64,000 nucleotides of DNA from assembly GCF_003334385.1 (NCBI RefSeq), contig NZ_QOWN01000006.1, one strand, 5' to 3'. This document shows positions 35,778 through 35,873 of the stretch, in pieces (within the stretch, counting starts at the first letter, position 1; every line of letters starts with the position of its first letter). The translations under genes were made by a program, and so were the position numbers. A model generated the notes under the pieces. The model did no database searches. It saw nothing but the letters and a program-made list of their open reading frames with translations, and was not told where the DNA came from. This DNA comes from Escherichia coli. GTDB taxonomy: Bacteria; Pseudomonadota; Gammaproteobacteria; Enterobacterales; Enterobacteriaceae.

Positions 35778-35873
35778 GAAATTTCCTGATTACAACGGAC
35801 GTAGCCAACAAGCGCAGGCATGAACAGGCGTCATTATAATGACGCTATCAGTAAATGCTACGTTATCCGTTGA

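Follow-up and report, generated by a model that had tools for sequence, protein, structure and literature searches.

The palindrome between msrC and proQ of Escherichia coli probably centres on the -10 box of the proQ promoter

A perfect 18-bp palindrome, GCGTCATTATAATGACGC, occupies part of the spacer between msrC and proQ in a 64-kb stretch of Escherichia coli DNA (hereafter, the window). Three roles had been suggested for it in an earlier note: a terminator hairpin for msrC, a promoter -10 element readable on either strand, or the binding site of a dimeric regulator. Which of these, if any, explains the symmetry? Our results favour the second, on one strand only. The centre of the palindrome is very probably the -10 box of the proQ promoter, and the symmetry of its arms has no detectable function (we put this at roughly 0.87). 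The start that this box specifies is already present in published maps, and the finding is in that sense an ordinary one; the conserved block in which the promoter is embedded is more unusual than the palindrome and is the lead worth following.

The palindrome and its locus

In an exact-match search of the window, the palindrome occurs once, and in E. coli its dyad is a perfect 9+9. The earlier note had its length and perfection right but placed it at 35829-35846, one base to the right of the true site, 35828-35845. The same slip affects the distance to the proQ start codon, given as 52-69 nt and actually 51-68 nt counted from the A at 35777. Direct reading agrees with the remainder of the description: the palindrome begins 28 nt past the msrC stop codon (TAA, 35876..35874, minus strand), and TATAAT is present at its centre on the minus strand, from 35838 to 35833. 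The gene identities that place the site between msrC and proQ are borne out by the RefSeq annotation of identical E. coli sequence.

The locus is nearly universal in the species. A 251-bp stretch around the palindrome, annotated as proQ and msrC, was found in 5,422 of 5,426 complete E. coli genomes, and its identity is at least 99% in 5,402 of these. Read along the minus strand, msrC is followed by a 96-nt spacer, proQ, and then prc (Table 1), while pqiA is oriented in the opposite direction, from 36501.

Gene starts at this locus vary between annotations. The mechanically called msrC open reading frame has 183 aa (start 36425), against 165 aa (start 36371) in RefSeq. In the transcription start site (TSS) map of Kim et al. 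(2012; PMC3415461), an msrC start falls at window position 36409, within the longer reading frame, which favours the RefSeq call of 165 aa. Among Salmonella and metagenome gene calls, some place the msrC start elsewhere, giving 189 or 148 aa. Two ProQ database entries, P0001 and P0016 (Escherichia albertii, 243 aa, and Salmonella Typhi CT18, 245 aa), exceed the usual 228-232 aa; if their extra residues are N-terminal, the start codons would lie upstream of the mapped proQ TSS and would be mis-annotations.

Table 1. Features of the msrC-proQ region in window coordinates, with mean identity to E. coli across 87 distinct Enterobacteriaceae loci where given
Feature	Coordinates	Strand	Remarks
msrC (yebR) coding sequence, upstream gene	35874..36371	-	RefSeq annotation of identical E. 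coli sequence
proQ coding sequence, downstream gene, prc next	35079..35777	-	RefSeq annotation
Palindrome GCGTCATTATAATGACGC	35828..35845	strandless	Perfect 18 bp, positions -20 to -3 of the proQ promoter; dyad pattern GTCATTATAATGAC
Putative weak -35 hexamer GTAGCA	35856..35861	-	3/6 to TTGACA; 17-bp spacer
-10 hexamer TATAAT of the proQ promoter	35833..35838	-	Positions -13 to -8; from direct reading, distance to the TSS and conservation
proQ TSS (G)	35825	-	48-nt 5' UTR; Kim et al. (2012); 51-mer upstream ends ...TATAATGACGCCTG / ...GCGTCATTATAATGACGCCTG
proQ 5' UTR, 48 nt	35778..35825	-	Shine-Dalgarno AGGAAA; mean identity 0.969; predicted unstructured
Abundant RNA 3' end	35802	-	Adams et al. 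Term-seq, U00096.3 1915559 (-), "orphan", scores 103591 and 41033.9
Nucleotide-conserved block	35738..35880	-	msrC stop, whole spacer and first ~13 proQ codons
msrC-proQ spacer, 96 nt			Mean identity 0.955
Third positions, proQ codons 2-13			Mean identity 0.90
Third positions, remaining proQ N-terminal domain			Mean identity 0.58
Third positions, msrC			Mean identity 0.47
Neighbouring msrC-pqiA spacer			Mean identity 0.665

The length of the palindrome says little by itself. The window holds three perfect palindromes of at least 18 bp, where a first-order Markov model predicts 0.28, and at least one of that length appears in 24% of simulated windows; long palindromes are enriched here as a class, and a single one is not remarkable. 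Two further perfect palindromes were seen. One, the 20-bp AATTGTTACGCGTAACAATT (54818-54837), lies in the first codons of a 603-aa minus-strand reading frame (53036..54847) that sits downstream of a 491-aa one; we take this to be the edd/zwf region and the palindrome to be GntR-operator-like (TGTTAC..GTAACA). The other, the 18-bp ACCATTAACGTTAATGGT (19348-19365), lies within a 542-aa plus-strand reading frame (18646..20274). For the palindrome studied here, the comparative data given below show no upkeep of the symmetry outside the -10 core, and the full 18 bp could be explained by a self-complementary TTATAA core with flanks that match by chance.

A start site and an invariant hexamer on the proQ strand

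A start at about 35825-35826 had been predicted from TATAAT before the locus was matched to the published map of Kim et al. (2012, PLoS Genet, PMC3415461). Their TSS table places a proQ start at NC_000913.2 1913606 on the minus strand (18 reads, one dataset, UTR 48) and lists as its upstream 51-mer AATCAACGGATAACGTAGCATTTACTGATAGCGTCATTATAATGACGCCTG, whose final G is the start. The TSS lies 7 nt downstream of TATAAT on the proQ strand, within the 6-8 nt typical of sigma-70-type promoters, and the hexamer carries the A at position 2 and the T at position 6 that such promoters have.

Housekeeping sigma-70 promoters of E. coli with a consensus -10 and a weak -35 offer the closest likeness. They share with this site a TATAAT with its critical A-11 and T-7, a start 7 nt downstream and a GC-rich discriminator, and the distance of about 50 nt from the start codon recurs in the proQ genes of Dickeya and Vibrio. 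Here, in contrast, the -35 hexamer matches the consensus at only 3/6 positions, the TG of an extended -10 is absent, and the hexamer is flanked by reverse complements. A consensus promoter scan returned no sigma-70 promoter with at least 4/6 matches in both hexamers, the weak -35 being the reason that this one went uncalled. A good -35 is absent from many real promoters. The motif RTRGYATTT at the -35 region is retained with the same spacing in distant relatives. The sigma-70-type assignment and the weak -35 are best regarded as putative.

Other transcript data agree with a start between the two genes. In the Term-seq study of Adams et al., entry into the 5'-UTR table required a TSS in the dRNA-seq data of Thomason (2015) 21-200 nt upstream of the 3' end; the end at 35802 was retained there, in agreement with transcription starting 23 nt before it. 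Read coverage in E. coli in the same study is 221 downstream of 35802 and 126 upstream. In Salmonella, proQ RNA is about 2.6 times as abundant as yebR RNA. Dickeya dadantii has a promoter between yebR and proQ, the two genes being mostly separate transcripts and proQ being co-transcribed with prc, and in Vibrio cholerae, where proQ lies between msrC and prc, proQ has a single promoter, 50 bp ahead of its start codon. No proQ entry was found in the ROSE or Romero (2014) supplements, and a literature text search for the palindrome sequence or for "proQp" returned nothing relevant.

We then have two elements to tell apart, the hexamer and the symmetry, and orthologous loci separate them. The comparison set comprised 88 msrC-proQ loci of Enterobacteriaceae, 89 with E. 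coli, and three more distant loci. TATAAT is present in all 89 sequences (100%), at the same position, and the 12-mer GTCATTATAATG is likewise invariant. The perfect 18-mer, on the other hand, occurs in 48 of the 89, E. coli included; the remaining 41 have one or two broken pairs each, through G-20A (16 sequences), C-19G (3), A-6T (29, some combined) and C-5G (3). Every substitution at -20, -19, -6 and -5, all low-information positions of a promoter, breaks pairing, and none is compensated. A pair count over the 66 distinct rows gave the same picture: seven of the nine pairs depart from the E. coli state solely through unpaired cells, with no pair changed on both sides, no wobble change and no covariation. 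The arms outside the hexamer are as conserved as the remaining spacer (mean 0.952 and 0.953, respectively), and the six most variable of the 96 spacer positions include -6 and -20. In the three distant relatives (L090, GCCTCATTATAATGTCGC; L091, GCGTGTTTATAATGACGC; and L093, from a 1.15-Mb reduced genome, GTGCTCATTATACTGAAATA), the hexamer keeps its distance from the ATG and reads TATAAT in two and TATACT in the third, and one or both arms are lost.

This pattern points to selection on the -10 element and not on the dyad, which argues against both an operator for a dimeric protein and a selected RNA hairpin. The suggestion of a promoter -10 in the earlier note is supported for the proQ (minus) strand alone, given the start mapped by Kim et al., the invariance of the hexamer and the promoters about 50 nt upstream of proQ in related species.

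If the -10 reading is correct, RNA polymerase would read TATAAT on the minus strand and initiate at the G at 35825, producing the 48-nt leader, and the sigma-70-type promoter would drive proQ together with the co-transcribed prc. The left arm, GCGTCA, would be the promoter-proximal end of the -35/-10 spacer, and the right arm, GACGC, the GC-rich discriminator leading from the -10 box to the start; that the two are reverse complements in E. coli, in Salmonella and in about half of the family would be a matter of chance.

Possible alternatives: transcription in both directions, an RNA hairpin, or an operator

Since the hexamer is symmetric, TATAAT can also be read on the plus strand, at 35835-35840, and the -10 might fire both ways, with a plus-strand start at about 35847-35848 giving a transcript antisense to the 3'-terminal part of msrC. 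The mapped TSS mirrored about the dyad centre falls at 35848, which puts the two starts 23 bp apart. This distance is among the enriched spacings of divergent TSSs that Warman et al. (bioRxiv 10.1101/2020.01.31.928960) list for E. coli, where 19% of TSSs belong to such pairs. The site thus resembles their bidirectional promoters in its overlapping TATAAT elements on opposite strands and in the spacing of the implied starts, but the commonest class there has 18 bp, the plus-strand -35 is very poor here (GCGCAG, 1/6), and, as weaker evidence, an excerpt of the Kim et al. (2012) table, which is of limited depth, lists no plus-strand TSS nearby, the nearest being two pqiA/yebS starts. We consider bidirectional firing unlikely.

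The palindrome may alternatively act as RNA. In transcripts reading through from msrC, its hairpin could help to end or stabilise the msrC mRNA, as the tip of a 72-nt 3'-UTR structure ending at 35802, and such a role may coexist with the promoter. The 18-mer RNA folds into a 7-bp hairpin of -8.2 kcal/mol that no shuffled sequence matches, and the 72 nt from the msrC stop to 35802 can fold as one extended, imperfect hairpin capped by the palindrome (-21.5 kcal/mol, z = -2.34). The end at 35802 is abundant and is the first mapped end downstream of msrC; it lies 72 nt past the msrC stop, 26 nt past the palindrome, 23 nt downstream of the TSS and 25 nt upstream of the proQ ATG.

As a terminator, the palindrome shares with intrinsic (Rho-independent) ones a stable, GC-closed stem just past a stop codon, but it differs from them in what follows. 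The stem has no U-rich tract on its 3' side, where CUGUUCAUGCC comes next, and a terminator scan found none on the minus strand. In the Term-seq data of Adams et al., no 3' end is assigned to msrC, none falls within 50 nt of its stop, and none lies within about 10 nt of the stem base. The nearest, at 35802, scores 0.96 for Rho, where the cut-off is 2.0, and 2.43 as an intrinsic terminator, where it is 3.0; these authors ascribe such ends to processing. That end may, moreover, belong to proQ leader transcripts, as it lies downstream of the proQ TSS. The msrC terminator proposed earlier is not supported by these observations. A second Term-seq end, at 35684 on the minus strand, 93 nt inside proQ, is neither Rho-dependent nor a predicted intrinsic terminator.

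Comparative folding also speaks against a selected RNA structure. The RNAalifold consensus of 88 sequences contains neither the palindrome hairpin nor the 72-nt hairpin, and no helix in it has a compensatory pair; all substitutions in the palindrome stem break pairs. The single-sequence fold of the 131-nt region is unremarkable (z = -1.17). We also considered a long-range inverted repeat around the palindrome (CAACGGA..CGTAGC / GCTACG..TCCGTTG) as a conserved helix and rejected it, as a frequent T-to-A change at 35803 is never compensated. A role for the hairpin at the msrC 3' end is, on balance, rather improbable.

LacI- and LexA-type repressors bind palindromic operators that overlap the -10 box. 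That the palindrome is an operator of this kind, through which a dimeric factor represses or otherwise controls proQ-prc, is very improbable: its perfect dyad centred on the -10 region has the classic repressor geometry, the window has its excess of long perfect palindromes and the surrounding region is unusually constrained, but the dyad is lost without compensation in the 41 loci noted above, the arms show no conservation beyond that of the remaining spacer, distant relatives retain the hexamer alone, no further copy with up to three mismatches exists in the 64-kb window, and the literature searched names no regulator of proQ transcription or protein binding this site. To our knowledge, the palindrome has no convincing fit to the sites of Fur, Zur, NrdR, LexA, sigma-E, DnaA, ArcA or RcsB.

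A conserved block around the promoter

The promoter reading leaves one feature of the locus unexplained. Nucleotide conservation extends from the msrC stop through the whole spacer into the first proQ codons (Table 1), and the 96 nt around the -10 box are far more conserved than a plain promoter needs. As this excess includes the spacer upstream of the -35, something else probably acts there as well. A permissive Rfam search of positions 34800-36800 returned no family, and the leader is predicted to be unstructured (z = +1.03 for the fold of 35826..35738).

Several details of the block are worth recording. Two direct copies of GGATAA, arranged as GGATAA-N5-GGATAA, lie 11 bp apart on the minus strand (as TTATCC on the plus strand, 35863-35868 and 35874-35879). 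In the proQ promoter they take up -54 to -38, and the msrC stop codon falls within the upstream copy. Being almost unchanged throughout the family, the repeat is a possible binding site for a protein, ahead of the weak -35. The "leaderless" list of Kim et al. (2012; PMC3415461) has a 5' end that coincides with the first base of the proQ start codon (the A at 35777, minus strand), with 12 reads in E. coli and 28 in Klebsiella pneumoniae; it may be a conserved processing site, as no good -10 lies upstream. In one metagenomic ortholog (L007, an ENA scaffold, at ~1975-1990), 8 nt of the otherwise invariant leader, TAATCAGG, are missing and most of the proQ Shine-Dalgarno is gone, through either an assembly error or a natural low-expression variant.

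The block of about 140 nt (35738-35880) might be a dual-use module that combines the msrC 3' end, the proQ promoter, the 3' end at -25 and the translation start. The RNA ending at 35802, whether an msrC 3' UTR tipped by the palindrome hairpin or a proQ leader of small size, would then be a stable fragment feeding back on ProQ synthesis; alternatively, the symmetric -10 would fire both ways. We hold this model to be speculative and doubtful. Feedback by such an RNA would match the autogenous control suggested for Salmonella ProQ. El Mouali et al. proposed autogenous regulation after finding higher proQ mRNA levels when ProQ variants defective in RNA binding were expressed from the native promoter.

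We return to the palindrome as the -10 box of the proQ promoter. In itself it adds nothing new, as the start has been published and the symmetry does not appear to be selected. The exact position of the promoter is useful in practice, for clean proQ deletions and for native-promoter plasmids that leave msrC and prc undisturbed. ProQ is a global RNA-binding protein of enterobacteria, and the extreme conservation of the spacer and first codons, together with the abundant 3' end in the leader, points to an uncharacterised layer of control on ProQ levels.
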